Of a DNA stretch of 64,000 bases, positions 4,162 to 55,844 are shown piece after piece. This stretch comes from a virus: the IMG/VR virus record IMGVR_UViG_3300007513_000009; one strand, written 5' to 3'. Each line of letters opens with the position of its first letter. Position 1 is the stretch's first letter. Below the pieces are notes generated by a model. The model was not told the origin of the DNA and ran no database searches. It saw nothing but the letters and a program-made list of their open reading frames with translations. Both the position numbers and the translations under genes were made by a program.

Positions 4162-4162
4162 T

Positions 4163-5071
4163 ATGAAATCACATGGATTATGGGTTGAAAAATATCGCCC
4201 TCAAGACCTATCAACTTATGTAGGTAATGACAATTTAAAAGTTAAGGTTGCTAGATTTATAGAGGAGCAAAATGTACCACAATTGCTTCTTTATGGAAAG
4301 GCTGGTGGTGGTAAAACCACACTTGCTAAAATTATTGTTAATAATGTTGAGTGTGATTATCTTTATATTAATGCATCGGATGAAAGAAACATAGATTTGG
4401 TTCGAGACAAGTTGAAGACATTTGCTTCTTCAATTGGTTTTAAACCAAATAAGATTGTTATTTTGGATGAGGCTGATTACCTAAATCCCAATTCTGCTCA
4501 ACCAGCTCTTCGTAATTTAATGGAAACATTTTCTGTTCATTGTCGATTTATATTGACTTGTAATTATGTTGAAAAAATTATCGATCCATTACAAAGTAGA
4601 TGTCAGACTTATAAGATAATACCACCATCAAAGAAAGAGGTGGCACTTCATGTAAAAGGCATTTTAGAAAAAGAAAATATTGATTTTGATTTGGATGATT
4701 TAGCATTAATAGTAACTGCTGGTTATCCAGATTTGAGAAAAATCATCAATGATTTACAAAGACAATGTATTGATGGTGAGTTGAAAGTTGATAAACAAGG
4801 AATGTTGAATAATGAATTTAAATTATTGTTTATTGAATCATTAAAAAATCGTGATGATATACGGACAATTAGACAGTTGGTGGCTAATAATAATTTTACT
4901 GATTTTACAGAATTATTTAGGTTGATGTATGATGAAGTAGAAAATTTTGCTGATGATAGAATCGCTGAAGCCATAGCAGAGATTTCAAATGGCCTTTATC
5001 AAGATATTTTAGTGCCCGATAAAGAGATAAATTTTATAGCAACAATTTCAAATATGTTAAGGAAAATATAA
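4163..5071 (+). CDS. Clamp loader AAA+ subunit (gp44/RFC small subunit-like)
   Basis: LWVEKYRP, Walker A GKAGGGKTT, INASDER, ILDEAD, SRC motif. Confidence 0.95.
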   Translation: MKSHGLWVEKYRPQDLSTYVGNDNLKVKVARFIEEQNVPQLLLYGKAGGGKTTLAKIIVNNVECDYLYINASDERNIDLVRDKLKTFASSIGFKPNKIVILDEADYLNPNSAQPALRNLMETFSVHCRFILTCNYVEKIIDPLQSRCQTYKIIPPSKKEVALHVKGILEKENIDFDLDDLALIVTAGYPDLRKIINDLQRQCIDGELKVDKQGMLNNEFKLLFIESLKNRDDIRTIRQLVANNNFTDFTELFRLMYDEVENFADDRIAEAIAEISNGLYQDILVPDKEINFIATISNMLRKI

Positions 5072-5319
5072 TGAATATGAAAGCACAAAAACCAATAAAA
5101 CAACCACAACAACAAGTACAAGTTGATTTAACAACTGCTGAAACTATGACATGTGCTGAGTGTGAAAATAAAATTTTTATACAAGGTTATGTGGTAAAAA
5201 GAATATCGGCTATAGTTTCACCTACCGGAAAAGAAGTCATTGCTCCAGTTCAAGTTTTTAATTGTGGAAACTGTGGTGAGATATTAAATATTGGTGGGGA
5301 AATGGATGAACTTATTTAA
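5071..5319 (+). CDS. Small zinc-ribbon protein
   Basis: CAEC...CGNC. Confidence 0.6.
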   Translation: MNMKAQKPIKQPQQQVQVDLTTAETMTCAECENKIFIQGYVVKRISAIVSPTGKEVIAPVQVFNCGNCGEILNIGGEMDELI

Positions 5320-5725
5320 GTGGATTAACGAATTATTTGTTGGAAAGAGGGATTGGAATACATTTACCGATGATGATAAAAAAACCTTTAGTCCATTTAT
5401 GATTAATCGATATTTAAGTATGAAGGAAGATTATTTACCAATAGTCAATCATTTTCAGAAATTTACAATTCTAACGATGCCACATAGTGCTGTGTATCGT
5501 TTCTACTGTAATCTTTTGCCAAAGCAAAAGGTTTATTTAAAATATATGAGTGGTAATAAAAGAAAAGTGAATAAAGATTTGATTGGCTATTTGGTAGATT
5601 ATTTTGAAGTAAGTACTCGCCAAGCTTTAGATTATTATGATTTATTTAACAATAGTGATTTAAAATCTATATTGAGGGAATATGGAAAATCTAAAAAAGA
5701 AATGAAAACAATGGGATTAAAATGA
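5306..5725 (+). CDS. Clamp loader small subunit (gp62-like)
   Basis: FSPFMINRYLS motif; located next to gp44-like gene. Confidence 0.75.
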   Translation: MNLFKWINELFVGKRDWNTFTDDDKKTFSPFMINRYLSMKEDYLPIVNHFQKFTILTMPHSAVYRFYCNLLPKQKVYLKYMSGNKRKVNKDLIGYLVDYFEVSTRQALDYYDLFNNSDLKSILREYGKSKKEMKTMGLK

Positions 5726-6621
5726 AGTGTTTAGTTACAGGTGGTGCTGGATTTATTGGTTCTAACTTAATTAAGCGATTGGTAAGTGATGGGCACAAGG
5801 TTGTATCATTGGATAATTATTCTACTGGTAAGAAAGAAAATGAAGTGGATGGTTGTCAATATTTTGAAGTCGATTTATCAGAGGTAAAGTATTATTCGTT
5901 TTTTCAAGACAAACCTTCTGTGATTTTTCATTTAGCTGCATTGTCTCGTATTCAACCATCGTTTGATGATCCAGAACAAACATTTAAATCTAATATATAT
6001 TCTACTGTTAATATAATGGAAGATGCGAGACGAAATCAAATACCTGTTGTATATGCTGGAACATCATCTGTGCATGGTGATAAATATATTAATCCATATA
6101 CATTTACAAAGTGGCAAGCTGAAGAGATAGTAAAAATGTATAGCGAGTTATTTGATATACCAAGTTGTATTTGTAGATTTTATAATGTTTATGGGCCAGG
6201 GCAGACTACTGAAGGGGCTTATTGTAATGTTCTTGGAGTCTTTGAAAAACAATATAGAGAAGGTAAGCCATTAACTATTACGAGTGATGGAGAACAAAGA
6301 CGAGATTTTATTCATGTTGAAGATGTAGTAGATGGGATGGTAAGGTGTATGCAGGCTATGCATGGTGTTGTGGATAGGAGATTTTCTGGTTGGTCATTTG
6401 AGTTAGGGTCTGGAAAAAATTATTCAATTAATGAAATAGCTAAGGCGTTTTCAATCATAACGCCTATGGGTAGTGGTGAATATCCAACTAAATATATTGA
6501 TGCTAAATCAGGAGAGATGAGAGAAACTTTATGCACAGATGGTACAGCTAATGAGATATTAGATTGGAATCCTAAAGGTGATATAATAGAATATATAAGA
6601 GAGGAGTTGGTAAATGAGTAA
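5722..6621 (+). CDS. NAD-dependent sugar epimerase/dehydratase
   Basis: TGGAGFIGS, YTFTK (YxxxK), RFYNVYGP, RDFIHVED. Confidence 0.92.
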   Translation: MKCLVTGGAGFIGSNLIKRLVSDGHKVVSLDNYSTGKKENEVDGCQYFEVDLSEVKYYSFFQDKPSVIFHLAALSRIQPSFDDPEQTFKSNIYSTVNIMEDARRNQIPVVYAGTSSVHGDKYINPYTFTKWQAEEIVKMYSELFDIPSCICRFYNVYGPGQTTEGAYCNVLGVFEKQYREGKPLTITSDGEQRRDFIHVEDVVDGMVRCMQAMHGVVDRRFSGWSFELGSGKNYSINEIAKAFSIITPMGSGEYPTKYIDAKSGEMRETLCTDGTANEILDWNPKGDIIEYIREELVNE

Positions 6622-6970: not shown

Positions 6971-7597
6971 ATGTCGGTTACAGAATATACGGTTGAACAA
7001 ATACCAAGAAAAAGTATTGTTAAGTTTATTGAAAAACACCATTATTCACATAATGTAAATGGGGTTCAATCGTTATACCACTTTGGATTATTTAGAGAAG
7101 GTAACTTTGGTTTGCCAACAATGATAGGGGCTATGATGTATGCTTATCCGTCTATGCCAGCAACGGCAGCTAAGTATAATCCTATCAATCCTAATAAGTG
7201 CTTAGAATTAAGAAGATTAGTATGTGTAGACGACACATTTAAGAATACAGAGAGTTATTTTATTGGACAAACATTTAAGTGGTTAAAACAAAATACAGAT
7301 ATGGAGGTGGTAGTTTCTTTTGCTGATAAACATTATGGGCACACCGGTGTGATATATAGGGCTACAAATTTTGAATATTTAGGAGAAACTTCTAAAGGAA
7401 TTATATTGATGGTTGATGGTAAGGAAATGCATAGTAGATCTATGAATCAGAGGAAAAGGCCATATAGTAGAGAGATAAAAAGGCGCTATGATAGTGGCGA
7501 CAAAAATATCTTTTTTAAAGATAGAGATTCAAAAAATATATATGTGTATTATTTGAATAAAAAAATTAAGAGAAAAATAAAGTCTTTGAATAAATAA
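6971..7597 (+). CDS. Mom-family GNAT DNA (adenine) modification enzyme
   Basis: FIEKHHYSH, LELRRLV, NTESYFIG, VVSFADxxYGHTGVIYRATNF motifs. Confidence 0.85.
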   Translation: MSVTEYTVEQIPRKSIVKFIEKHHYSHNVNGVQSLYHFGLFREGNFGLPTMIGAMMYAYPSMPATAAKYNPINPNKCLELRRLVCVDDTFKNTESYFIGQTFKWLKQNTDMEVVVSFADKHYGHTGVIYRATNFEYLGETSKGIILMVDGKEMHSRSMNQRKRPYSREIKRRYDSGDKNIFFKDRDSKNIYVYYLNKKIKRKIKSLNK

Positions 7598-10282: not shown

Positions 10283-11644
10283 ATGTCTAAAAAGAAGATT
10301 TTGTTGATGTCGGATGATTTAAGAATGCATAGTGGTATAGCTACTGTATCTAAAGATATTGTAGTTGAAACTTTACATAAATATGATTGGGTTCAATTGG
10401 CTGGTGCTATAAAACATCCTGAAGAAGGTAAGGTGGTGAATATGGATGCGGCAATAGCAGACATATCAGGGGTAAATGATGCAAAATTGACAATTTATCC
10501 AACAAGTGGATATGGTAATCCAGAAGTAGTAAGAGAAATATTAGTTAGAGAAAAACCAGATGCAATACTACACTATACTGATCCAAGATTTTGGATTTGG
10601 TTTTATGAGATGGAAGCGGAAATTCGTAGAGAGATTCCAATTTTTTATTATAACATTTGGGATGATTTACCAGATCCACAATACAATACAAATTATTATA
10701 GAAGTTCTAATTTGTTAATGGCAATATCAAAACAGACTTATGGTATAAATAAACGATTGTTACCAGATTATGAAGATTGGCAAGTAACTTATGTTCCACA
10801 TGGTATTTCATCTCGTAGGTTTTATAAAATTGATGATGCTGATAATGAACTTTTGGAATTTAATGATAAATTTGGAATATCGGATAAAAAATTTAGAGTA
10901 TTATATAGTAATAGAAATATTAGAAGAAAACAACCAGGCGATGTTATGTTGGCATATAAATACTTTATGGATGAGTTAACTCCTGAACAACGAGATGAAT
11001 GTGTATTGATATACCATTGTGCTCCAGTAGATGATAATGGAACTGATTTGCCAAGGATGTGTAGACATTTGATGCCAGATTATGATGTATGTTACACACA
11101 TCATATGGGCGGAACATTTGAAGATAAAGAAATGAATTTATTATTTAATTCATCTGATGTCTATATTAACCTTGCTAGTAATGAGGGTTTTGGTTTAGGT
11201 AGTGCTGAAGCACTTACAGTTGAGACACCCATTATTGTAAATGTTACAGGTGGTTTACAAGATCAATGTGGATTTAGAAATGAAGATGGGGAACTGTTGA
11301 TACCAGATGATTATGTTGAGTTGGGTAGTAACCATAGGGGTAAATACAAAAATCACGGTGAATGGGTAAAACCTGTTTATCCAGCGAGTCGTTCATTACA
11401 AGGTTCTCCACCCACACCATATATTTGGGATGATAGATGTAATCCAGAAGATGCTGCACCATTACTTCGTGAGTTCTATGATATGGGTAGAGAAGAAAGA
11501 AAAAGACTTGGTTCATTGGGAGCTCAGTTCTGTAAAGACAATCAAATGACATCTGAAGAAATGGGTGCCAACTTTATTAAGTCTATGGATGGGGCATTTA
11601 AAAATTGGAAACCAGCAAAAAGATATACGGTGGAGAAGATATGA
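10283..11644 (+). CDS. GT-B (GT4-like) glycosyltransferase
   Basis: VPHGI, NRNIRRK, NEGFGLGSAEA. Confidence 0.9.
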   Translation: MSKKKILLMSDDLRMHSGIATVSKDIVVETLHKYDWVQLAGAIKHPEEGKVVNMDAAIADISGVNDAKLTIYPTSGYGNPEVVREILVREKPDAILHYTDPRFWIWFYEMEAEIRREIPIFYYNIWDDLPDPQYNTNYYRSSNLLMAISKQTYGINKRLLPDYEDWQVTYVPHGISSRRFYKIDDADNELLEFNDKFGISDKKFRVLYSNRNIRRKQPGDVMLAYKYFMDELTPEQRDECVLIYHCAPVDDNGTDLPRMCRHLMPDYDVCYTHHMGGTFEDKEMNLLFNSSDVYINLASNEGFGLGSAEALTVETPIIVNVTGGLQDQCGFRNEDGELLIPDDYVELGSNHRGKYKNHGEWVKPVYPASRSLQGSPPTPYIWDDRCNPEDAAPLLREFYDMGREERKRLGSLGAQFCKDNQMTSEEMGANFIKSMDGAFKNWKPAKRYTVEKI

Positions 11645-12996
11645 AAACTAAAGTAGTTATGACAGCACCTTTTAATACTCGTAGTGGATATGGAGATCAT
11701 GCTAGGTCTATTTTTTATTCGATTATGGATAGGGATGATATTGATATAACATGTGTTGATACTAAGTGGGGAGAAACTCCAAGAAATCATTTAAATCTTA
11801 AAGTACCAAGGCATAAAAAATTGTTAGATGTTTTAACTGTAGATACCAATTTAGATTTTCAACCAGATGTTTATATTGATATTCGAATTCCAAATGAATT
11901 TGCTCAAGTAGGAAAATATAATTTAGGAATTACTGCTGGGGTTGAAACTGATATAGTTTCTCCTGAATTTATAGAAGGTGCTAATAAAATGAATCTGAAT
12001 ATAGTACCATCAGAGTTTACTCAAAAAACATTTCTTAATACAGTTTATGATAAGTCGGAAGGGGCGGGTGATGAAAAGAAAAAAGTTGGAGAACATAGAT
12101 TACAGAAGCCAGTATTAGTTTTATCTGAGGGAATTGATGTTGATGTATATAAACCATTTGATACTACTAAAATAAAATCTAATTTTAAAGATGAAATGGA
12201 AGAAATCTTGAAAGATGAATCCATTGTTTATCTTCATGTCGGTTTGTGGGGTAAAGGTGCATATGGTGAGGATAGAAAAAATATATCTTTAATGATTAAA
12301 ACTTTTTATGAGGCTTTTGCAAATGATCCTAAAGAACCCACACCGGCTTTATTAATAAAAACTAATGGGTCTAATTTTTCAGTTTTAGATAGATATAGTA
12401 CTGTTAAGAGAATAAAAGAAATAAAAAAGAAGTTTGGGGGTATTGATAAATTACCTAATGTTTATTTATTACATGGGGATTTGACAATAGAACAAATGGC
12501 TATTTTATATAATTTACCTAAGATAAAAGCTTTTTTAACTTGTACTCATGGTGAGGGGTTTGGACGACCAATGTTAGAAGCTAGTTGTTGTGATTTACCA
12601 GTTATTGCTTCTAATTGGAGTGGGCATTTAGACTTTCTTAATTCTTCCGAATCATTATTAATTCAAGGAAAATTAAAGAAAGTTCCAGAAGCAATGGTTT
12701 GGAAACCAATAATTGAAGCACAGTCTAAATGGTATGATGTTGGTGAGGGCGATGTTAAAAGAAAATTGCGGTTGTTTTATAATAATGTTAAAGGAATTAC
12801 TGGTAGGGCAAAATCTCTTGGTAAGAAAAATAGAAAAAAGTTTTCTTTAGAAAAAATGGCTTTTGATTTTAATAAAATATTGGATGATATAATAAAAAAT
12901 ATTCCACAACAAGTATCTTTGAAATTACCTAAATTAAAAAAAGTTGGTAGTACAAAATCAAATAGATTAAAATTACCAAAATTGAAAAAACAATGA
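11641..12996 (+). CDS. GT-B (GT4-like) glycosyltransferase
   Basis: SGYGDHAR, DRKNI, GEGFGRPMLEA, WSGHLDF. Confidence 0.9.
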   Translation: MKTKVVMTAPFNTRSGYGDHARSIFYSIMDRDDIDITCVDTKWGETPRNHLNLKVPRHKKLLDVLTVDTNLDFQPDVYIDIRIPNEFAQVGKYNLGITAGVETDIVSPEFIEGANKMNLNIVPSEFTQKTFLNTVYDKSEGAGDEKKKVGEHRLQKPVLVLSEGIDVDVYKPFDTTKIKSNFKDEMEEILKDESIVYLHVGLWGKGAYGEDRKNISLMIKTFYEAFANDPKEPTPALLIKTNGSNFSVLDRYSTVKRIKEIKKKFGGIDKLPNVYLLHGDLTIEQMAILYNLPKIKAFLTCTHGEGFGRPMLEASCCDLPVIASNWSGHLDFLNSSESLLIQGKLKKVPEAMVWKPIIEAQSKWYDVGEGDVKRKLRLFYNNVKGITGRAKSLGKKNRKKFSLEKMAFDFNKILDDIIKNIPQQVSLKLPKLKKVGSTKSNRLKLPKLKKQ

Positions 12997-37112: not shown

Positions 37113-37292
37113 ATGAGTAGCATGGAAATATTTATTCAGATGAAAGAACAATGGGATGCGTTTGAAGTCGATCACCATAAGTTCGTAGAGAAAGGTAACA
37201 AAGCCGCTGGTGGTAGAGCAAGAAAATCTATTGGTGAAATCAAAAAGTTAGTTACTGAGTATCGTAAAGCATCTGTAGCAGAATCAAAGTAA
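37113..37292 (+). CDS. Histone H1-like Hc1-family nucleoid protein
   Basis: KGNKAAGGRARK...YRKASV; RBS GAGGA upstream of ATG 37113. Confidence 0.75.
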   Translation: MSSMEIFIQMKEQWDAFEVDHHKFVEKGNKAAGGRARKSIGEIKKLVTEYRKASVAESK

Positions 37293-37301
37293 AAAAAAAG
37301 C

Positions 37302-37330
37302 TTGACATTTTGAATAAAAAGTGTTAAGTT
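37302..37330 (+). promoter_or_regulatory. sigma70-like promoter for the DUF4338 block
   Basis: TTGACA-17bp-TAAGTT. Confidence 0.55.
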
Positions 37331-37361: not shown

Positions 37362-38561
37362 TTGATGGCGTTCAACGATTTTTTTGACGATCCCGATGAG
37401 TTTAATTACGATCGGGAGCGGGATAACTTTATCGATAATATGAATATGTTGAAGGCTATGTCGGTTGAAGAGATTACTTTATATAAAAAGTGGCAAGAGT
37501 TGAACAAAGATGCCTATAAAATGGTAAAGAAGGCAAATAAGTTTTTCAATGTTGGTTATATGTTATGGAGTCCTACAGATATAAACAATAAACAACAGAC
37601 TATTAAAGAGATAGAAGAGTTAGACCCTTATGTGGAATATATTGAGCAGGGAAATGTTAAGTCCACAGATACTTGGGTTTCAGTAAGGAAGTTGATTCAT
37701 AGTATGGAGTTTACTGCTAATCCAGGTAGGAATTTAAAATTCTTTATTAAAGATAGGAATACAGATAAAGTCTTAGGTGTTGTTTGTTTAGGGTCTGATG
37801 TTGTGTCAATTGGTGTTAGAGATAAACATATTGGTTGGACAAAAGAAGATAAGTTGACTGATGGTAAATTGAGGCACACTTCTATTGCTACCACTATATG
37901 TTGTACTCAACCATTAGGTTTTAATTTTTTGGGTGGTAAGTTGGTTGCTGCTATGACAACTAGTTCGGTTATAAGGAATAAATGGGAAGAACTTTATGAT
38001 GAAACTTTAGTAGGCATAACCACTACTGCTCTCTATGGTGTTCATTCAATGTACAATGGCATTCCACATTGGAAAACTCTTGGGGAATCTGTAGGTAGAA
38101 TTTCTTTGAAGCCGGATGATTCAACTTATGAAGTGTGGCATGATTGGTTGAAAGAGAATAAGAGAGATGAGTATTTAGAAAAAACTGTACAAAAAGAGGG
38201 AGTTGCTGGTCCAAGGACTGGGGTGAAGAGTATCATTATTCATATGATGTTTAAGGAATTGGGTATAAGAGCTTCAAATTATGAGCATGGTTTTAAAAGA
38301 GGTGTTTATTATTCAGATATATATGAAAATGGTAAAGAGTTTTTACAGAATGAGATACATGAAGATGAACTTATTATGAAGAAGAAGTTTACTGGTGATG
38401 TTGATTATATAAATAATTGGTGGAAACCTAAGGCTATCAGAAGGTATACTAAGTTATTTGATGAGGGTAGATTAAAACCTGATAGATTATTTTATGCTGA
38501 TGTTGTTGGTAAGACATGGGAACAAACAAAGGCAAAGTATTTAAATGAGGTGGGTAGATAG
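37362..38561 (+). CDS. DUF4338 / Druantia DruA-like protein
   Basis: PGRNLKFFIKD..TDKVLG, RDKHIGW, LGGKLVA, ITTTALYG..SMYN. Confidence 0.75.
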   Translation: MMAFNDFFDDPDEFNYDRERDNFIDNMNMLKAMSVEEITLYKKWQELNKDAYKMVKKANKFFNVGYMLWSPTDINNKQQTIKEIEELDPYVEYIEQGNVKSTDTWVSVRKLIHSMEFTANPGRNLKFFIKDRNTDKVLGVVCLGSDVVSIGVRDKHIGWTKEDKLTDGKLRHTSIATTICCTQPLGFNFLGGKLVAAMTTSSVIRNKWEELYDETLVGITTTALYGVHSMYNGIPHWKTLGESVGRISLKPDDSTYEVWHDWLKENKRDEYLEKTVQKEGVAGPRTGVKSIIIHMMFKELGIRASNYEHGFKRGVYYSDIYENGKEFLQNEIHEDELIMKKKFTGDVDYINNWWKPKAIRRYTKLFDEGRLKPDRLFYADVVGKTWEQTKAKYLNEVGR

Positions 38562-40159
38562 TGCTAATGTTAAAAAAATCATTTGGTGAAACTTTATACA
38601 CAAGAGATGTAAAGTTTACAAAGAGAGGTAAAGATAGTTTAGGTGCAAGTCATTACACCATTCATACAGCTATAAAAGAGATAGTCAATAACTTTATTGT
38701 TGGTCTGACTTTTTTCCAAAGATATAACAGACTTGTAAAAGGTCAAGTAGTTATTGATACTACAAATATGAAATTATATGTAATAGATGATATGACGGGT
38801 TGGGATGAAACAAGAATGACTGAAGCTATGGATATGGGAGTAAGTCTCCCAACACCTGCTATTATGTCTCGTTATGGAATGGGAATAAAATATTTCATTC
38901 CTTATCTTGGAGAACTTGATGAAATTAGAACTTGTCGTGATGCTGATGTTAAGGATTACTTTTCAATGATAGTCGATGATACTTCTGACTATGTTGGACA
39001 TAGAGTTGTAAAAAGCAATGAACCACTAAAACGATTTAATGTTGAAACTCAAGATTGGGAAAAGTTTGATGGTGTTGGTTCAATGATAACCATTGATTTA
39101 AAGTCGAAACACTTCTTTAAAGATAAACGTATCCCAAAAAATCTTATTGAAAAATTTCAAGATTGTTATAAAAAATATTTAGGTAAAACAATATCACTTG
39201 AAGTGATTTGGTTGAAAGACGATAAAGTTGTATTTCATAAACATTGTCGAAAACATACACCACTAAAATCTGCTGAGAGAGTTGTTTTTGAGAAAGTTAT
39301 TAATCCAGAGACAAATAAACCTTATGAGCATATCGACAAAGCAAGAGTGATAGGGCCTGATGTTTGGGAACTTGATGAAATGTATAAATGTCCTAAGACT
39401 GGTTATATTGTGGACTTACAAATAGGTTTTGTTCCACACCCAAAAAATCTGCTCAAACATTATGAAGAAACTAACGACCCTAAATATTGTCCTGATACTT
39501 ACAAAGATAATATTTACAGATATGGTGGTCAGTTTTGTGGATTGACTTACACTCAAGAAGGCGTCGGAATCTCAGGTGGAGAATTTTCTATGGATAGAAA
39601 AGCTGGTATCTATGGAACTATCGACATAATAAAAGGTATAGAAACTACAAGTGATAAAACTTCGATTGAAAGAACATTAGAACTTGATATCTTTGAAGAC
39701 GAACTTACTGAGTTTCTTCGTAGTAAGAAAATATTAGTTCGTTCCACAGCGACTGCAAATCGTTATGATGAAGATGAGATGGAAGAACAACTAATGGAAA
39801 GATTAAGAGACTCATCTAAACTTAGAGAATATTTGGGTGTTGATGGATACACCTTTGATAATCAATACTCAGGTTGTACAAGTGGTATACCTGATATAGT
39901 TGCTCTTGATGGACTAAAGGTAGAAAAAGTCTTTGAGTTAAAAAAAGAGGGTGGTAAAGACTTACCATCAGCTCATTGGCAAGGTGCTTCATATTGTGTG
40001 GAGTTAGATAAAAAAGAGTTGATTATAGTTGCACAAGACCAAGAACTACCATCAGAACAAAAAATTAAAGTAGACATTTGGAATGCTAAAGGTTGGAACA
40101 TTAGATATGAACAATGGCAAACATTAGTTTCGGAATCAGTATTCCCAAAAGATAAATGA
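38561..40159 (+). CDS. Divergent GHKL (MORC-like) ATPase fused to a C-terminal PD-(D/E)XK nuclease
   Basis: AIKEIVNN, VIDDMTG, SRYGMGIK; C-terminal PDIVA...FELKK...QGASY. Confidence 0.65.
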   Translation: MLMLKKSFGETLYTRDVKFTKRGKDSLGASHYTIHTAIKEIVNNFIVGLTFFQRYNRLVKGQVVIDTTNMKLYVIDDMTGWDETRMTEAMDMGVSLPTPAIMSRYGMGIKYFIPYLGELDEIRTCRDADVKDYFSMIVDDTSDYVGHRVVKSNEPLKRFNVETQDWEKFDGVGSMITIDLKSKHFFKDKRIPKNLIEKFQDCYKKYLGKTISLEVIWLKDDKVVFHKHCRKHTPLKSAERVVFEKVINPETNKPYEHIDKARVIGPDVWELDEMYKCPKTGYIVDLQIGFVPHPKNLLKHYEETNDPKYCPDTYKDNIYRYGGQFCGLTYTQEGVGISGGEFSMDRKAGIYGTIDIIKGIETTSDKTSIERTLELDIFEDELTEFLRSKKILVRSTATANRYDEDEMEEQLMERLRDSSKLREYLGVDGYTFDNQYSGCTSGIPDIVALDGLKVEKVFELKKEGGKDLPSAHWQGASYCVELDKKELIIVAQDQELPSEQKIKVDIWNAKGWNIRYEQWQTLVSESVFPKDK

Positions 40160-40941
40160 AAATATACATTCCAACTTTCAAAAGAGTACATAAACAAATA
40201 ACATTTGTTAATTTACCAAATGATATGCAAAAGAATGTTATTTTAGTAGTACAAGAGCAAGAGAGAGATGAGTATGATTATAATTGTGAATATTTGGTTG
40301 TTCCAAATAATATAGGTATTGCTAAAACAAGAGAATATATTTATAAACACGCTAAAGACTCTAGATTTTGTATGTGTGATGATGATGTTAAATTCATAAG
40401 AAGAAATGCTAAGTATTATGGTAAAGAATCCAATATGGAAAAGTCAAATAGATTGATGACAACCAAAGACTTTAATGATATGTTTTCTTTGTTTAATTCT
40501 TGGATGGATGATGGAGTGCCACAGATAGGTAATAATGTTACTGCATTACCACCATCAGGTAAAGAATATACTGAGTTCACACCATTTAATTCAGTTCATT
40601 GTTTGGATGGGGCTGTATTGGAAAAGGAAGATATAGATCATGAGTTTGTACAGGTGGGTGAGGATTACCATTTGATGTTGGAATTACTTACGAGAGGATA
40701 TAAGATTAGACGAAGTGATGAGTTTGTAATTACTGTAGATGAGGATTATGCGAGTGGGGGGTGTTCCACATTTAGAACTGCAGCATTACAATATGAAGAA
40801 CATATTAAATTAATGGGGAAGTTTCCAGGTTTTGTCTATATGGCGGAGGAACTTTTTATAAATGATAAAAAAATTAGAAATTTTAGATATAGGTTAAAAG
40901 ATGCCTATAAATCTTCAAAATATATGAATGAGTTTTTTTAG
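40156..40941 (+). CDS. TAGT/GREB1-like GT-A glycosyltransferase (DNA base glycosylation type)
   Basis: IYIPTFKR, GIAKTREYI, MCDDD, EDYHLMLELL, GGCSTFRT. Confidence 0.78.
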   Translation: MKIYIPTFKRVHKQITFVNLPNDMQKNVILVVQEQERDEYDYNCEYLVVPNNIGIAKTREYIYKHAKDSRFCMCDDDVKFIRRNAKYYGKESNMEKSNRLMTTKDFNDMFSLFNSWMDDGVPQIGNNVTALPPSGKEYTEFTPFNSVHCLDGAVLEKEDIDHEFVQVGEDYHLMLELLTRGYKIRRSDEFVITVDEDYASGGCSTFRTAALQYEEHIKLMGKFPGFVYMAEELFINDKKIRNFRYRLKDAYKSSKYMNEFF

Positions 40942-40949
40942 AGGATAAT

Positions 40950-42311
40950 ATGATAAGAGATATAAATGATTATTTAGATGATAGATATGAACATGAACAA
41001 TATGATTATAAGATATTGCTTTATGGGAACTATACTTATCGTGATAATTTGGAGGCTGATAGTTTGGTGGAGGTGTTACGGCATGTTCTACCTTATATGA
41101 GTAAACGATGGAATATACACTTCACACTTCTTATACCAGAATTTGTTAAGTCTTTGAATTTTCCAAATGTTGAACAGAGAATGTACACACTACCGACATA
41201 TATCAATACAATGAGACAGCATTTTGATACAAAACAATTTATGTCACATGTTGATTGGAAGAGAAATGATTTTGACATAGTGTATTCACATTTGCCAGAA
41301 CATACACTTCAGATGGCTAATTGCTTATACAATAATTCAAATCTCAAACCTAAATTTATTGGTTATTCACATTGGTTTGAGGTACCTGAAAATGCACCAT
41401 ACGGTGATAGGGCTGGAGTTCATAAGGATTTTCCTGCTAGAGCATTGTACGAAAGTGTGGCTGGTCTACTTATGATGGATGAATGTGGAGTAAATAGTAA
41501 TTGGTTAAAACAGAAAACGATTGAAAATGCAGCTCATCATTGGAATGATAAAGTTATTAATAGATTACATGAGATTATTCAACCACATTATTTGGGTGTA
41601 GATAGAATTAATGTAAGAGATAAGTATGAGGATAAAACAGTAGTGTTCAATCATAGAGGTGCTGGATATACTGGATGGGAATGGTTCGTTAAAGTGGTTG
41701 ATGAAATTTGGGAACAAAGGCAAGATTTTAAAGTCTATACTACATTAACACAAGTAGATAGACCTTGGAATAAAAAAGTTAACTGTGAAACAAGAAATGA
41801 GTATATGGATTTTTTATCTAATGTTAAATTTGGAGTGGGAACATTCCAGACTTATTCTGCTTGGAGTATTTCTACCACAGATGGATTCTCTGTAGGAGTT
41901 CCTTATTTGTTACCGAATAAATTATGTTATCCTGAAATGACGAGTGTGGTAAAAGATCCTTATCCTTTCTTATATGATGATAGAAAAGATTTTAAGAATA
42001 AATTCAATACAATGTTAGATGGTGAGATAGATTACGATACTACTACATTAGCTAAAAATATGATGTGGGAAGAGCGTATATCAAAGTGGTTTAATAATTG
42101 GGATAATGTATTTAACTTAGATGCGGTACGTGAAACTGAAAGCGTATTGAAAATTAGGGATTTCATAGAGAGAAAGAGATTCGTAACTAAAAAAGAAATA
42201 TTGGAATACCTTGGATGGGGTGTTAGAATAGGTTTTAATGGTTATAGGAATGCTCTCAGAAAGTATGATGAAATCAAATTTACAAAACATGGATATGAAT
42301 GGAGAGATTAA
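40950..42311 (+). CDS. GT-B glycosyltransferase, possibly DNA-modifying
   Basis: DIVYSHLPEH, VFNHR, WSISTTDGFSVGVPY...YPEM. Confidence 0.7.
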   Translation: MIRDINDYLDDRYEHEQYDYKILLYGNYTYRDNLEADSLVEVLRHVLPYMSKRWNIHFTLLIPEFVKSLNFPNVEQRMYTLPTYINTMRQHFDTKQFMSHVDWKRNDFDIVYSHLPEHTLQMANCLYNNSNLKPKFIGYSHWFEVPENAPYGDRAGVHKDFPARALYESVAGLLMMDECGVNSNWLKQKTIENAAHHWNDKVINRLHEIIQPHYLGVDRINVRDKYEDKTVVFNHRGAGYTGWEWFVKVVDEIWEQRQDFKVYTTLTQVDRPWNKKVNCETRNEYMDFLSNVKFGVGTFQTYSAWSISTTDGFSVGVPYLLPNKLCYPEMTSVVKDPYPFLYDDRKDFKNKFNTMLDGEIDYDTTTLAKNMMWEERISKWFNNWDNVFNLDAVRETESVLKIRDFIERKRFVTKKEILEYLGWGVRIGFNGYRNALRKYDEIKFTKHGYEWRD

Positions 42312-42464: not shown

Positions 42465-43061
42465 ATGGTATTAGATAGTTTATTAACAGGAGTAATGTTA
42501 TTCACTTCGTTTGCGGTGAGAACACCAAATGTACAACCAAATCCAGATGATTATGAGGTTAGTATTGGGGTGAGTCATCCTGCGTATTACTTTAATCGTC
42601 AATGGGAGCGAGAACTTGGTGAACCTTATATTGATGATTTGGTTTGGTTGAAGTTAGATGCTAATAATCTTTATTTTAAACCAGAGTATATGGATAAACA
42701 AAGTCAGAAAATTAAGTATATGAAGATGGACTGGCGTAGAACTTGGATTGGTGCTACATGGGGATTTACTACTCGTTCCACTAATGATGCATTGGATGAG
42801 TATGAAACATTTGCTTCAGTTGGTATAAGTAAGAATAAGAAATATAGTAGTGATGTTATAGAAGTTGAAATATCATTTGATGGGTATCTACCACCTGATG
42901 AAAATGGTGAAACATATATTGAGAATTTTGAATACGAAGATAAATTCAGAATATCTTGGAAACTTACAGAAAAAGTTAGGCTCTACAATAGTGGTGAAGT
43001 TGCCAAGCTTAAAGGTAAAGATTATTATAAAGCTAAAATAGGGATAGAAGTATCGTTATGA
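42465..43061 (+). CDS. Putative outer-membrane beta-barrel protein
   Basis: Hydrophobic N-terminus, alternating beta strands, C-terminal YKAKIGIEVSL. Confidence 0.45.
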   Translation: MVLDSLLTGVMLFTSFAVRTPNVQPNPDDYEVSIGVSHPAYYFNRQWERELGEPYIDDLVWLKLDANNLYFKPEYMDKQSQKIKYMKMDWRRTWIGATWGFTTRSTNDALDEYETFASVGISKNKKYSSDVIEVEISFDGYLPPDENGETYIENFEYEDKFRISWKLTEKVRLYNSGEVAKLKGKDYYKAKIGIEVSL

Positions 43062-43708
43062 GTCAACCCGTAAATGTTATGCAATATCCAGATTATTTAA
43101 ATGAAGGGTTGGGTCTAGTTGAACCTATAAGATTAAGCAACCCATTAGTTTTTAAATCTCATTATGATGGGGATTTAAAACCTATGATGGATGAAGTTGA
43201 TATATTATTTAATCAGATTGAATATGGGAATATAGGTTTAGAGACTGGCAAAGCTAAAAGTACAGTAGACTTGGATAATCAATTACATATTAATCCAAAA
43301 TTTGCAGATTATTTTAAATGGAGTCTACCAAGAATAAAAGATGTTTTATCAATGTGGTCTTATGAAGTTAATGAATCATATGGCGTTGGTTGGGATTTTA
43401 AGAAAACTTGGGCTAATGAGCATTTAAAAGGTGGAGAAACCCTTGAACATCATCATGGGACAACAACTTTAGTTTTAACCATGTACCTAAACAAAGATAA
43501 TAATTCTGGAGATATATGGTTTATGGATCCTGAATTTATGATAAGAGCTAATGAGTATAATTCATTAGCTGCAGTAGGATGGAAAGCAATACCATGTAAG
43601 ATTGGGGATGTCTTTATGTTTCCTGGTTGGTTATTACATAGGTCGGGAATGAACTTTTCTGATAGTAGGAGAGTGGTTTTAACATCAAACATTGAAATAA
43701 TAAGGTAA
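43058..43708 (+). CDS. 2OG-Fe(II) oxygenase (phage TIGR02466-like)
   Basis: WAN...EHHH, SGDIWF.DP, GDVFMFPGWLLH, RVVLTSN. Confidence 0.85.
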   Translation: MSQPVNVMQYPDYLNEGLGLVEPIRLSNPLVFKSHYDGDLKPMMDEVDILFNQIEYGNIGLETGKAKSTVDLDNQLHINPKFADYFKWSLPRIKDVLSMWSYEVNESYGVGWDFKKTWANEHLKGGETLEHHHGTTTLVLTMYLNKDNNSGDIWFMDPEFMIRANEYNSLAAVGWKAIPCKIGDVFMFPGWLLHRSGMNFSDSRRVVLTSNIEIIR

Positions 43709-43712
43709 TAAA

Positions 43713-44456
43713 ATGATAAAAGAATTAACAGCAGAACAACTTGAAAATAATTGGGATAAACTTATTGATTTAATCAATACTACATTTGAAGGCGAGAGAT
43801 TAACAAATATGTTGGAGATGTATGATTATTTTGAAGAACGAATGGCTTTAGCACCTGCCAGTGGTAGAGAACATTATCATAGTGCCTATGCTGGTGGTTA
43901 TGTTGAGCATGTTTTGAATGTTACAGAATTTGCTATTCAATTGGCTGGGGTATGGAAGACAAATGGTGCTACTATAAATTTTACTCATGAAGAATTGGTG
44001 TTTGCTGCTCTACATCATGATTTGGGTAAGGTTGGTGATTTGGGTGAAGATTATTATATTATAAATGATTCAGATTGGCATCGTAAGAACCAAGGGTTAA
44101 TCTATAAACATAATCCTAACTTACAGTATATGACTGTAACTGATAGATCTATTTGGTTATTACAACACTTTAATATCAAAATGACAGATAATGAGTATAT
44201 TGGGTTAAGATTGACAGATGGGCTTTATGAAGAAGCTAATAAAAGTTATTATATAGGTTGGACACCAGAGAGATCATTAAGAACCAATATAGCTTATATA
44301 TTACATCAGGCTGATAGTATGGCGACTCATATTGAATTTGATATGTGGAAAAGGGGTGATTGGAATACACCACCACAAAAACCAAAAGTAAAAGAGGAAG
44401 TTACAGAGAAGTCTAAGAAGGCTAACGAATTATTTAAAGAATTATTTGATGATTGA
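43713..44456 (+). CDS. HD-domain phosphohydrolase (YhaM-like)
   Basis: HSAYAGGYVEH, LHHDLGK, LHQAD. Confidence 0.85.
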   Translation: MIKELTAEQLENNWDKLIDLINTTFEGERLTNMLEMYDYFEERMALAPASGREHYHSAYAGGYVEHVLNVTEFAIQLAGVWKTNGATINFTHEELVFAALHHDLGKVGDLGEDYYIINDSDWHRKNQGLIYKHNPNLQYMTVTDRSIWLLQHFNIKMTDNEYIGLRLTDGLYEEANKSYYIGWTPERSLRTNIAYILHQADSMATHIEFDMWKRGDWNTPPQKPKVKEEVTEKSKKANELFKELFDD

Positions 44457-46475: not shown

Positions 46476-46546
46476 GCGGGTGTTGTATAATGGTATTACC
46501 CCAGCCTTCCAAGCTGGTGATGTCGGTCCGATTCCGACCATCCGCT
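46476..46546 (+). tRNA. tRNA-Gly(TCC), CCA not encoded
   Basis: Acceptor GCGGGTG/CATCCGC, anticodon arm CCAGC-CT-TCC-AA-GCTGG, T arm GTCGG-TCCGATT-CCGAC, U discriminator. Confidence 0.92.
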
Positions 46547-46574
46547 CAAAAATATATTTGTATTTAGGATTTTT

Positions 46575-48460: not shown

Positions 48461-48524
48461 AAATAAAGCTTGACTCGTATTGCATTTCTTTTGTATCTTC
48501 ATATATGAAAAAAAGAGGAAAAAC
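48450..48524 (+). repeat. 75-bp direct repeat, copy 2 (promoter + RBS cassette)
   Basis: Identical to 48181-48255. Confidence 0.92.
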
Positions 48525-48530
48525 AATCAA

Positions 48531-50483
48531 ATGAAAAATTACTCCCCATATTCTTCTTTTTGGTTTGATAAAAAAGATACTGACATTGATGAATTGTTAG
48601 GTATTGAAAAGGAAAAACCAAAGAAGAATTATATTCAGATGGCTTCAAATCAAAGGGCTATCGCTAATTTTGTTCGTATCGTAAGTGGTAAGAATATTCC
48701 TGTCAACTATACAACTCGTGGAGATTCTTATACAGATGGGAAAAATGTTACTATTTCAGGTAATGTGAATGAGAAGAGTTTCGACCACATTGTTGGTCTT
48801 GCACTTCATGAAGGTAGTCATATTGCTTTTAGTGATTTTGAGGTTTTGAAGGATGCAATCAGAGGAGTTCCTGATAGTTGGAGTTATGAAGAAGCATCAT
48901 TTTTCAAAAATATGATTAATTTTGTTGAAGATAGAAGAATTGATACTAAGGTATTTAAATCTTCTCCTGGATATAAAGGTTACTACCATAGTCTTTATAA
49001 AAAGTATTTTCAAAATAATGCGATTAAAAAAGGGTTGAAATCAGGTGAGTTTCGTGAGTTGGATATCGAAAGTTATGAATTTCGTATCTTAGGTTTTATG
49101 GTAAAGGAATCAGATTTAGATGCACTACCAAAACTTCGTGAAATCTACAATATGATTGATTTGAGAAATATATCGAGATTAGATGGTAAACAAGATGTTG
49201 TTAATCTTGCTCTTGATATATGTAGTTTGGTTTTTCCAATGATTCCTAAAGGTGAAGGAAATTCTAACGGTTTACCAGAAGATGGTTCAGAAGAGTCAGA
49301 AAGTCCAGAAGGTGATGGTTCTCCTAAAGGTAGTGGTGATGGTACTGAGGTTGATACTGGTGATGCTGAAATGGTTCCTGATGATGGAAACTCTTCTGAT
49401 GAAACCATTGAATATGAAGAACTTAATGAAGCTCAGAAAAAATCACTTCATAAGGCTATTGAAAAAATGAAAGATTTATTGGATGGAAAAGCACCAAAAA
49501 GTAAACTTACTAAAAAAGATGCTCAGATGGTTAATTCGATGGCAAAGAGTGGTGCTGAGTTAGTTGAAGTTGGTGATAAGGGTTCATTAGGTACAACAAA
49601 ATGTGTTGTTATTCCTAATTATACTCAAGATATGATTGATTCAAATGCTTTTGATTTTTGTCAGAAACCTTGGATGTACAATAAAGAGAGTATTTCTGAG
49701 AGTAGATATGGAAAACCTATTTATGAAGGTCTTCGATTAGGAACTGTTTTGGGTAAAAAACTTAAAGTTCGTGGGGAAGAAAGAGATTTGATTTTCACTC
49801 GGCAGGATACAGGAAGGATTGATAAAAGACTTATCTCTGAGTTGGGTTTTGATAATGAAAGAGTATTTTCACAGACTTTTACGGAAAGATATAATAAAGC
49901 TAATCTTCATATTAGTATTGATGGGTCTGGTTCAATGAGTGGTCAGAAGTGGACTGATGCTATCACTTCTACGGTAGCTATTGTAAAGGCTGCTGAAATG
50001 GCTGGAAATATTAGAGTTGTTGTTAGTTTCAGATATACAGATGATAGACATCCTGTTTTGTTGATTGGTTATGATTCTAATAAAGATAAGATAAGTAAAA
50101 TAAAGAAATTGTGGCCATCACTTAGGGTTTGTGGAACAACTCCTGAGTCACTTTGTTATGAAGCTATGATGAAACATTTCTTAAGTCTTTCGAATAGTGA
50201 TGATAATTACTTCATCAATTATTCAGATGGGGCACCTTGGTTTGGTAATGATGATGTACATTATTCTGGTGGGGATGCGATTAGACATTGTAATAAAATG
50301 CTAAAAGTGATTCGTAATAATGGAATCAAAGTATTAAGTTATTTCATTAGTGAAGGTAATTACCATAGTGATTCGGATAGAACAACTTTTAATAAGATGT
50401 ATGGTAAGGATGCAGCTTTCATCAATACTAAAAATATGATGGAAGTAGCCAAAACAATGAATAATATGTTTCTGGCGAAATGA
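48531..50483 (+). CDS. HExxH metallopeptidase-like + acidic linker + vWA (MIDAS) protein (CobT-like)
   Basis: ALHEGSH, NFVEDRRI; DGSGSM, GTTPE, SDGAP. Confidence 0.85.
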   Translation: MKNYSPYSSFWFDKKDTDIDELLGIEKEKPKKNYIQMASNQRAIANFVRIVSGKNIPVNYTTRGDSYTDGKNVTISGNVNEKSFDHIVGLALHEGSHIAFSDFEVLKDAIRGVPDSWSYEEASFFKNMINFVEDRRIDTKVFKSSPGYKGYYHSLYKKYFQNNAIKKGLKSGEFRELDIESYEFRILGFMVKESDLDALPKLREIYNMIDLRNISRLDGKQDVVNLALDICSLVFPMIPKGEGNSNGLPEDGSEESESPEGDGSPKGSGDGTEVDTGDAEMVPDDGNSSDETIEYEELNEAQKKSLHKAIEKMKDLLDGKAPKSKLTKKDAQMVNSMAKSGAELVEVGDKGSLGTTKCVVIPNYTQDMIDSNAFDFCQKPWMYNKESISESRYGKPIYEGLRLGTVLGKKLKVRGEERDLIFTRQDTGRIDKRLISELGFDNERVFSQTFTERYNKANLHISIDGSGSMSGQKWTDAITSTVAIVKAAEMAGNIRVVVSFRYTDDRHPVLLIGYDSNKDKISKIKKLWPSLRVCGTTPESLCYEAMMKHFLSLSNSDDNYFINYSDGAPWFGNDDVHYSGGDAIRHCNKMLKVIRNNGIKVLSYFISEGNYHSDSDRTTFNKMYGKDAAFINTKNMMEVAKTMNNMFLAK

Positions 50484-54695: not shown

Positions 54696-55844
54696 ATGAA
54701 TAAAACTATTGTAAAAATTGAGATGAGTGGGAATCGTTATAACGCGTACACTCAAAGTGGGGAGAAAGTCACTTCCCAAATTCTCACATCTACTCGAAAG
54801 TCTGCTTTCAATAAGGGTATGGCTTTGGAAAAAAGGGAAGGTAAAGGTGGAAGGGTTTATTGGTGGAAAGTACCAATGTCTGAATTCGATAATATAAGTA
54901 ATACTTTCGTTACACCACCATCTTCAGAAGTTGAAGTACCTACTGATCATGCTGAAGTGATGAATTTTATTTCTACTTCATATAGATTGAAACCTAAAGG
55001 TTTGGTAATGAGTGAACTTAAATGGAAGTATCTCATTAGGTCAGCCATTAGGGGTAAAAATATTATGATGACAGGGCAAGCTGGATGTGGTAAGACACTC
55101 GCGGCGAAGTCATTAATTAATTCACTCGATCGTCCATCATACTATTTCAATATGGGTGGGACACAAGATCCCCGATCTACTTTAATTGGGAACACTCATT
55201 ATAATAAAGAGAAAGGAACTTTCTTTTCTGAATCACTATTTGTAAAAGCTATTCAAACACCAAACTCTGTAATACTATTAGATGAGTTGACTCGGGCTCA
55301 CCCTGATGCGTGGAACATCTTAATGACAGTTTTGGATAGTGGACAGAGATATTTAAGGTTGGATGAAAAAGATGGAAGTGATACTATTAAGGTCGCAGAT
55401 GGTGTATGTTTCATAGCTACGGCAAACATAGGTAATGAATATACCTCCACAAGACAGTTGGATAAAGCTCTTATGGATAGGTTCACAGTAATCGAAATGG
55501 ACTTACTTAATGAAGAAGAAGAATTTGGATTACTTCGTTATATGTATCCATCAGTAGATGAAGGATTAATAACTGATGTATCTAAAATTGCCTATCTAAC
55601 GAGAAGTGAGTCAGAAAATGAAAATGCTAGAATAGGAAGTGGTATCTCTACTCGGACTTCGGTTGAAATAGTAGGATTACTTTTCGATGGTTTCTCACTT
55701 TTGGAATCCGCAGAAATCACCATCTATCCACAATATGATAATAGTGGTGGGGTAGATAGTGAAAGAACTTTCGTAAAGCAAATTGTTCAGAAATTTGTTA
55801 ATGACGAAAGTGGTGAAGAACTTTTTGATGAGGTAGAAGAATAA
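54696..55844 (+). CDS. MoxR/CbbQ-type AAA+ ATPase (CobS-like)
   Basis: GQAGCGKT, ILLDELTRA, ATANIG..Y, LDKALMDRF, ISTR. Confidence 0.9.
   Translation: MNKTIVKIEMSGNRYNAYTQSGEKVTSQILTSTRKSAFNKGMALEKREGKGGRVYWWKVPMSEFDNISNTFVTPPSSEVEVPTDHAEVMNFISTSYRLKPKGLVMSELKWKYLIRSAIRGKNIMMTGQAGCGKTLAAKSLINSLDRPSYYFNMGGTQDPRSTLIGNTHYNKEKGTFFSESLFVKAIQTPNSVILLDELTRAHPDAWNILMTVLDSGQRYLRLDEKDGSDTIKVADGVCFIATANIGNEYTSTRQLDKALMDRFTVIEMDLLNEEEEFGLLRYMYPSVDEGLITDVSKIAYLTRSESENENARIGSGISTRTSVEIVGLLFDGFSLLESAEITIYPQYDNSGGVDSERTFVKQIVQKFVNDESGEELFDEVEE

Follow-up and report, generated by a model that had tools for sequence, protein, structure and literature searches.

A MORC-type GHKL-nuclease fusion in a variable gene slot between DruA-family and glycosyltransferase genes of an uncultured marine T4-like phage

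Bacterial proteins in which a GHKL ATPase is fused to a nuclease are proven anti-phage nucleases that require both active sites (PMC12137116; 10.64898/2026.09.30.754977). For instance, VcSduA, a paraMORC3 or Shedu type I-D protein, is predicted to form an entwined dimeric clamp, and its anti-phage activity is lost when the glutamate of the ATPase or the lysine of the nuclease is mutated (PMC12137116). Tiamat, another anti-phage GHKL-nuclease fusion, is both an ATPase and a DNase (10.64898/2026.09.30.754977), and paraMORCs have been found embedded in restriction-modification (R-M) operons (PMC2292703). While such fusions are known as bacterial anti-phage weapons, the subject here is a compact, sequence-distinct version from a type of phage that is abundant in the ocean. 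This protein is encoded by the second of four adjacent open reading frames (ORFs) within a 64,000 nucleotide stretch, hereafter 'the window', of the IMG/VR record IMGVR_UViG_3300007513_000009; the whole record is 131 kb long and estimated to be approximately 70% complete. ORF1 encodes a DruA-family protein, ORF2 the GHKL-restriction endonuclease fusion (GHKL-REase), ORF3 a TAGT-family GT-A glycosyltransferase and ORF4 a GT-B glycosyltransferase. The source is an uncultured, lytic-type marine T4-like myophage; the window has a GC content of approximately 31%, carries nearly all of its genes on one strand and encodes a T4-type DNA polymerase (phrog_262) at 855-3389. Two features are new: the phage-borne MORC-type GHKL-REase, and the picture of a slot in which nuclease genes and candidate genes for accessory DNA marks are exchanged.

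The ORF2 product, 532 amino acids (aa) in length, has no match of its own in Pfam, PHROG, PADLOC or NCBIfam, and searches of the PDB with the ORF2 and ORF4 sequences and family profiles returned only noise. The MORC-type fusion posited in the preliminary description was nevertheless borne out by structure searches, which recovered both a GHKL plus S5 fold and a restriction-endonuclease fold, and by the invariance of the catalytic residues. Using an AlphaFold2 model (mean predicted local distance difference test score, pLDDT, of 84), residues 18-392 were matched by VIA to SMCHD1 (Z 19.8), MORC3 (Z 19.1), MORC2 (Z 16.4) and MutL (Z 14.9), and Foldseek agreed on the ATPase part (Hsp90, MORC and GyrB). 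Residues 400-532 were matched to EcoT38I (Z 9.2), LlaBIII (9.0), NucS (8.9), McrC (8.2) and FokI (7.8).

The family is small: clustering at 90% identity gives 16 groups, each of marine metagenome origin, and no member has so far come from anything other than marine viral or metagenome contigs. Every member found is intact, at 517-550 aa. Invariant in the 16 members are E40, N43, N44, D76, G80, G106, G108 and K366 on the ATPase side and E404, E408, D445, E459, K461, Q474 and Y478 on the nuclease side. HATPase_c_3 (PF13589) is matched weakly by 11 of the 16, and its cut-off is passed by the homologues in two other viral loci, L002 (34% identical, 4e-7) and L032 (23%, 9e-8). A profile search of 1.84 billion representatives retrieved 300 relatives, among which 48 distant full-length proteins, only 14-22% identical to ORF2, match HATPase_c_3 in 46 cases and Morc6_S5 in 11, some also matching the nuclease families NucS_C, Mrr_cat or PDDEXK_3. 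Seven ATPase-side residues are invariant in these 48 and a further four show conservation of at least 90%, the two classes together including E40, N44, D76, G80, G106, G108, K110 and K366; K110 is conserved across close and distant relatives alike, and the consensus of the distant set retains the nuclease pattern D..ExK..QxxxY. The GHKL motifs had initially been thought divergent, leaving ATPase activity in doubt. Because the GHKL and S5 residues are in fact conserved down to 14-22% identity, such activity is likely, as judged from sequence. The possibility that ORF2 represents T4 rIIA was rejected, as it has no match in PHROG or, by tblastn, in 50,697 phage records, and its family is rare rather than core.

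In overall plan ORF2 is close to VcSduA, both being proteins of roughly 500-600 aa with an N-terminal GHKL domain, a clamp-like S5 or middle region and a C-terminal PD-(D/E)xK domain bearing an E-D-ExK motif (PMC12137116, PMC2292703). However, the nuclease of VcSduA is of the DUF4263/SduA_C type (PF14082), whereas that of the ORF2 family is not, some of its distant relatives having the other nuclease matches given above: PF14082 matched none of the 16 family members (E <= 1) and none of the 48 distant relatives, and a search of the phage's own genome was negative, with a silent control. Furthermore, VcSduA is encoded by a stand-alone bacterial anti-phage gene, whereas ORF2 is phage-encoded and lies inside a DNA-modification island. 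Tiamat shares the ATPase-nuclease clamp design and is often found near helicases, nucleases and methyltransferases, but is about twice as long, has TPR-like, 'Fold B' and metalloprotease-like inserts and ends in a NOV_C/DUF3883 nuclease; in ORF2 the S5 region is followed directly by the nuclease, and there is no Pfam or PADLOC match to Tiamat-type domains. ORF2 was therefore assigned neither to Shedu type I-D nor to Tiamat, in view of the lack of SduA_C and NOV_C matches. Eukaryotic MORC and SMCHD1 proteins and MutL, the best structural matches over residues 18-392, have the Bergerat motifs and the S5 lysine in common with ORF2, which is without their CW, coiled-coil and hinge regions and carries a restriction-endonuclease fold instead of the MutL C-terminal endonuclease. 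If it does behave as a small MORC-like clamp nuclease, ORF2 would be tractable for biochemistry.

The surroundings of the fusion were compared across 80 IMG/VR loci, labelled here by L numbers, sampled from 336 with ORF4 homologues. The recurrent gene order is DruA, GT-B and then an HD-domain hydrolase, with the HD gene following GT-B within a few bases in most loci. DruA homologues are present in 55 of the 80: in 28 the gene directly abuts GT-B, in 21 the junction holds 0.25-2.9 kb of small ORFs or cargo genes, and in six DruA sits approximately 7 kb downstream, past PolB. By comparison, the GHKL-REase occurs only in the window, L002 (IMGVR_UViG_3300032083_001414) and L032/L075, and TAGT only in the window and L065. 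In L005, the closest relative (GT-B 93% and DruA 89% identical), the slot is empty and DruA abuts GT-B, so the 2.4 kb cassette of GHKL-REase and TAGT represents an insertion exactly at this junction. The DruA/GT-B junction is thus a swap-slot, and the four genes are not one ancestral unit. The initial picture of a single conserved module has accordingly to be abandoned, since DruA and GT-B are widespread while the GHKL-REase is rare and TAGT rarer, although the accompanying question of whether the GHKL-REase is an optional insert is answered in the affirmative. Recent horizontal acquisition of the insert was rejected on compositional grounds, its GC and GC3 being equal to those of the flanks.

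The slot is flanked by DNA-modification-type genes, and in it the GHKL-REase alternates with nucleases resembling the Type IV enzyme GmrSD. Among the closest relatives, L006-L008 have a GmrSD_N plus HNH protein at this position and L010 a GmrSD_N protein. Other loci contain a GT_PLOD gene with a 556 aa protein (L053), an N6_N4 DNA methylase with a 232 aa protein (L070), or TAGT with a 402 aa protein (L065); in the 131 kb of the present phage, a search for N6_N4 methylase genes was negative. In the ESM Atlas, a family of 515-557 aa slot proteins (L053, L059, L063 and L026) is similar to GmrSD_N/HNH clusters (feature scores 0.94-0.96, TM values 0.5-0.68). The GmrSD-like genes (L006:7637-8992, L008:3334-4689, L010:855-2309, L053:1462-3132, L059:1141-2688 and L026:10455-12128) encode DUF262 proteins with or without HNH, and in these lytic-type T4-like phages they resemble Type IV restriction genes; that of L006 also matches the PADLOC model for Menshen NsnA (2e-14). 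DUF262-HNH genes have previously been noted, without an assigned function, in T4-like cyanophages (PMC12284385). Further occupants of the slot are found at L055:1306-2514, L065:1453-2661, L073:7151-9004 and L074:6929-9004, as well as at L077:6954-8906, L070:748-1446 and L071:4414-4995. Kinship of the 556, 402 and 691 aa slot proteins with the GHKL-REase or GT-B was discounted, as hhalign comparison with both profiles revealed no relation.

The contexts of the GHKL-REase itself were drawn from 19 metagenome loci together with L002 and L032/L075. It lies beside a DNA-modification-type gene (DruA, GT-B, Mom or an N6/N4 methylase) in 12 of approximately 17 informative loci, and this adjacency recurs across versions that are only 22-90% identical; the linkage of nuclease and modification genes anticipated in relatives is therefore present. 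The arrangements are diverse, comprising DruA-GHKL-GT-B without TAGT (L090 and L093), DruA-GHKL (L096), GHKL-GT-B (L097), GT-B-GHKL (L032/L075), GHKL-GT-B-like-PolB-x-DruA (L102), GHKL-HD-N6_N4 methylase (L101 and L105), Mom-GHKL (L098), FEN-like exonuclease-GHKL (L100), and an order of pyridoxal phosphate (PLP) enzyme, GT-B-like gene, GHKL-REase and HD (L002 and L099). At a separate site, the gene follows a peptidase, CobS and a 161 aa protein in L088 (81% identity), L094 and L095. The GHKL-REase is therefore not obligatorily tied to any single modification gene. The island of L002, which is without DruA, contains at 3835-6191 a 535 aa protein with a C-terminal N6_N4 methylase domain and a 249 aa PLP-dependent (PALP) enzyme, upstream of divergent GT-B and GHKL-REase genes; L099, L101 and L105 are comparable. 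Islands of this type may pair a different hypermodification chemistry with the same nuclease.

The conserved genes on either side of the slot are themselves of interest. ORF1 was correctly recognised at the outset as a DUF4338/DruA protein, scoring 75.4 bits against PF14236 (cut-off 27; E 5.5e-21) over residues 85-329 and 1e-21 against the PADLOC DruA model. It consequently passes the same model as DruA of Druantia type I, but without DruB-DruE partners: a PADLOC scan of the four proteins downstream detected no other Dru protein, and a Druantia type I system was ruled out, the neighbours being instead the GHKL-REase, TAGT, GT-B, a 2-oxoglutarate (2OG) oxygenase and the HD protein. Also in contrast to Druantia, similar genes in cultured Pelagibacter and Synechococcus myophages stand alone. 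The nearest cultured relatives are in the Kyanoviridae Pelagibacter phages Mosig and HTVC008M, in both of which DruA is followed by MazG or a peptidase and there is no island, and then in about 25 Synechococcus myophages. Homologues of a large peptidase (48480-50483) and a CobS-like AAA protein (54696-55844), encoded downstream in the window, are syntenic with those of Mosig and HTVC008M. DUF4338 has been described by the Aravind group as a GNAT acyltransferase fold (PMC10853773), which as described is shared with the phage Mu protein Mom (PF25680), although a sequence link between Mom and ORF1 was not reproduced.

ORF3 proved to be a TAGT GT-A enzyme, as first suggested, matching PF20691 (68.5 bits, cut-off 27.5; E 1e-18) and phrog_842, 'beta-glucosyl-HMC-alpha-glucosyltransferase' (5e-27). 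Its homologues, 23-27% identical, are found in 688 phage records, which are mostly T-even-like and have the gene adjoining gp42. The T6-type TAGT enzyme adds a second glucose to glucosyl-hydroxymethylcytosine (PMC13390438). Similarly, the GT-B assignment of ORF4 is upheld by two Rossmann-like domains in its AlphaFold2 model: residues 17-391 match BshA (Z 23.6), PglA (23.0), a glycosyltransferase of phage HY126 (19.3) and T4 alpha-GT (16.9), and a distant homologue matches Glyco_transf_4. More than 700 protein clusters in marine metagenomes are homologous to ORF4. In its model, the C-terminal tail (residues 395-453 approximately; nucleotides 42132-42308) forms a confident three-helix plus beta-hairpin unit, which on topology alone appears winged-helix-like. 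The neighbouring GT-B and TAGT GT-A genes of this T4-like phage recall the T-even DNA glucosylation set, made up of the GT-B enzymes alpha-GT and beta-GT and the TAGT-family enzyme of T2 and T6 (PMC13390438), but ORF3 has only the low identity to T-even TAGT given above, ORF4 is GT4-like and not of the alpha-GT or beta-GT family, and no gp42-type hydroxymethylase, whose gene lies next to TAGT in T-even phages, could be detected in the 131 kb. A literature search found no paper describing this island or the pairing of DruA with GT-B, which is a candidate for an undescribed DNA modification. Neither megablast of the 6 kb region nor tblastn of ORF2 and of ORF4 gave any match in the 50,697 phage records, among which they therefore have no cultured relatives.

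The DNA of the phage is probably modified, because two Mom-family (PF25680) genes are present: one in the window and a second approximately 1 kb past its end (E about 1e-45). Experiments have established Mom as a DNA adenine modifier that depends on Gly-tRNA (PMC13219725). The proposal that self DNA is hypermodified thus gains from the Mom genes, but not in its original form, as a hydroxymethylated base is without gene support in the 131 kb. The Mom gene within the window lies between that for DNA polymerase and two glycosyltransferase genes (phrog_2170; 10283-11644 and 11605-12996). A tRNA-Gly gene (anticodon TCC; 46476-46547, + strand) follows the HD gene at a distance of approximately 2 kb; Gly-tRNA(Gly) is what Mom uses.

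The best reading of the locus is as a composite DNA-modification and nuclease island, similar to an R-M system, in a marine T4-like myophage. The mechanism proposed, which is put forward tentatively as having a little less than an even chance of being correct, is that the GHKL-REase is an ATP-gated clamp nuclease telling DNA apart by modification state, with the phage's own DNA protected by Mom-dependent marks and marks dependent on DruA and GT-B, in some cases with TAGT. Judging from MORC, MutL and GHKL-type Shedu proteins, ATP binding would dimerise the protein into a clamp around duplex DNA, which would then cut DNA marked as non-self by its modification state, whether unmodified host or competitor DNA or the differently modified DNA of a rival phage. 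Self DNA would be shielded by the Mom marks and, probably, by those of DruA and GT-B, while TAGT would diversify the self mark through the addition or extension of a sugar. DNA is the presumed substrate of DruA, GT-B and TAGT; which way the discrimination runs, and what its biological target is, are likewise presumed. Should discrimination by modification be correct, these phages would be running restriction-like systems of their own, which could be aimed at the chromosome of the host or at rival phages, with the matching marks provided by the variable sugar and methyl genes; this would help to explain the fast turnover of modification genes in marine T4-like phages.

Several observations weigh against this mechanism. 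Within the 131 kb of the incomplete record no match was found to a thymidylate-synthase-like hydroxymethylase (PF00303), to ThyX or, in a search with a silent control, to TET/JBP (PF12851). GT4-like and GT-A enzymes mostly use non-DNA acceptors. TAGT is linked to the GHKL-REase in this window only, and the occurrence of the nuclease away from DruA and GT-B in L088 and L094/L095 means that their adjacency could reflect an insertion hotspot instead of a functional tie. Comparison of the DruA profile with the PDB, and by hhalign with the phage's own Mom, gave no significant DruA-Mom link. The further slot occupants listed above, of 193-691 aa, have no detectable family bar a weak MTase_II match for the 402 aa protein, and may belong to further families of nucleases or modification enzymes. 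Moreover, the freestanding homing endonucleases of T-even phages have the same signature, a variable nuclease gene flanked by conserved ones.

This last resemblance underlies one alternative, that the GHKL-REase, like the GmrSD-like and HNH slot genes, is a selfish element comparable to T-even seg and mob, spreading among the genomes of co-infecting phages by cutting alleles without it and only incidentally associated with its neighbours. Its patchy distribution (the 16 clusters given above, whereas the GT-B next to it has more than 700), its insertion precisely between the stop and start of conserved genes with an empty-site allele in L005, its presence at two or more genomic positions and the several unrelated nuclease types at the same junction all fit such behaviour. 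Yet at 530 aa, with a conserved ATPase and S5 engine, the protein does not resemble the compact homing endonucleases that are known, it recurs beside modification genes in the divergent versions described above, its composition is fully ameliorated and its translational coupling to TAGT is in keeping with a cassette under joint selection, making this explanation quite unlikely. Somewhat more credence, though still short of making it likely, is given to a Type IV-like role, whereby the GHKL-REase cuts the DNA of competing phages bearing another sugar or acyl mark, as a co-infection exclusion weapon for which the GmrSD-like nucleases could substitute. Enzymes of the GmrSD family depend on modification (PMC13390438, PMC12137116) and occupy the same slot in L006-L008 and L010, as does the GmrSD-like family in L053, L059, L063 and L026; no GmrSD_N gene was found in this genome's 131 kb, such that the two nuclease types look like alternatives, and accessory sugar and methyl enzymes vary alongside the nucleases, as an arms race over marks would predict. 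However, ORF2 has no detectable modified-base reader domain (SRA, EVE, DUF262 or similar), its nuclease domain has similar Z scores to modification-dependent (AspBHI and McrC) and modification-blocked (EcoT38I and LlaBIII) enzymes, and the functional equivalence of slot occupants is an assumption.

A different possibility is that DruA, GT-B and TAGT act on protein, lipid or a small molecule, for example of the virion or host envelope, with the nuclease being an unrelated replication, recombination or host-DNA-degradation enzyme and no logic of marks connecting them. In structure, ORF4 is nearest to GT4 enzymes whose substrates are small molecules, lipids or glycans (BshA, PglA and PimA), the window has the two additional glycosyltransferase genes at 10283-12996, and neither hydroxymethylase nor TET was detected, with the qualification for the latter given above; MutL-like GHKL nucleases, too, work in repair (PMC2292703). 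This account is nonetheless rather improbable, as the characterised relatives of TAGT act on DNA-linked sugars (PMC13390438), GT-B resembles T4 alpha-GT and has the winged-helix-like tail, the slot cargo of relatives consists mostly of DNA enzymes, such as methylases and Type IV-like nucleases, and Mom adjoins the GHKL-REase in L098. Returning to the proposed clamp nuclease, a more specific and speculative elaboration, thought to have only a slim chance of being right, would be a 'mark-and-cut' island: the DruA-family protein, as a Mom-like, aminoacyl-tRNA-dependent GNAT, would place an acyl or aminoacyl group on a DNA base, the winged-helix-tailed GT-B, optionally with TAGT or GT_PLOD, would glycosylate this group, and interchangeable nucleases, either the GHKL-REase or a GmrSD-like protein, would read the mark and destroy host or rival phage DNA. 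If true, this would constitute both an undescribed class of DNA hypermodification and a virus-encoded R-M-like system for phage-against-phage warfare.

The features of the locus are listed in Table 1. All four ORFs lie on the + strand where the preliminary description had placed them, and their tight coupling could be read directly from the junctions. The DruA stop codon, TAG, occupies 38559-38561 and the likely ORF2 start is the ATG at 38567, to which the starts of its relatives and of an ESM Atlas record correspond; the ORF2 stop overlaps the ORF3 start in an ATGA at 40156-40159, by which the two are translationally coupled; and 8 nt separate the ORF3 stop from the ORF4 ATG, which is preceded by GAGGA. 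ORF1 most likely starts at the ATG at 37365. The promoter previously placed at 37302 has a perfect TTGACA, but the best -10 hexamer at 17 nt spacing, TAAGTT, is weak, and a sigma-70 consensus scan of the region found 44 sites against 49.4 expected from shuffles; neither this nor the terminator scan exceeded chance. The Hc1 gene directly upstream of DruA has homologues in the same position in L005-L007 and L026; a phage protein resembling chlamydial histone H1-like Hc1 beside DNA-modification genes is unusual.

Table 1. Features of the window, with positions numbered from its first nucleotide
Feature	Position	Strand	Evidence or remark
Mom-family (PF25680) DNA adenine modifier	6971-7597	+	E 6.8e-46
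Hc1-family histone-H1-like DNA-binding protein, 84 aa	37038-37292	+	PF07432 E 1.9e-20, mapping to 37122-37289
-35-like hexamer, perfect TTGACA	37302-37307	+	In 69-nt gap before ORF1; weak -10
ORF1, DruA/DUF4338 protein, backbone gene	37362-38561	+	Pfam, PADLOC, phrog_19197
ORF2, GHKL-REase	38561-40159	+	
ORF2 N-terminal module, MORC-type GHKL ATPase + S5 (residues about 18-392)	38561-39736	+	AlphaFold2 model, VIA, Foldseek
ORF2 C-terminal PD-(D/E)xK restriction-endonuclease-fold domain (residues about 400-532)	39758-40159	+	VIA, conserved motif
ORF3, TAGT-family GT-A glycosyltransferase	40156-40941	+	PF20691, phrog_842, DDD (DxD-type) run in translation
ORF4, GT-B (GT4-like) glycosyltransferase, backbone gene	40950-42311	+	AlphaFold2 model pLDDT 85, VIA
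198-aa protein in GT-B to HD gap	42465-43061	+	Homologues only in closest relatives L005-L007
2OG-Fe(II) oxygenase, PF13759 type, window-specific insert	43058-43708	+	PF13759 3.7e-10, phrog_81
HD-domain phosphohydrolase, backbone gene closing island	43713-44456	+	phrog_28876, phrog_5889, weak Pfam HD

Downstream of ORF4, the 198 aa protein has no Pfam, PHROG, PADLOC or NCBIfam match, and a PADLOC and NCBIfam run on ORF2-ORF5 was similarly negative. The 2OG-Fe(II) oxygenase mentioned in the preliminary description was identified as such, but it is of the PF13759 type and not TET/JBP, and cannot be tied to the other genes; it has no homologue in the 80 related loci. Oxygenases of this type are common in marine phages, and Mosig carries three of them near its DruA. 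The HD hydrolase that closes the island is 65% identical to that of L002. The GT-B to HD junction constitutes a second variable gap, which also takes non-DNA cargo, since in L005 it contains a class-3 lipase (L005:6861-7622; PF01764, 3e-25).

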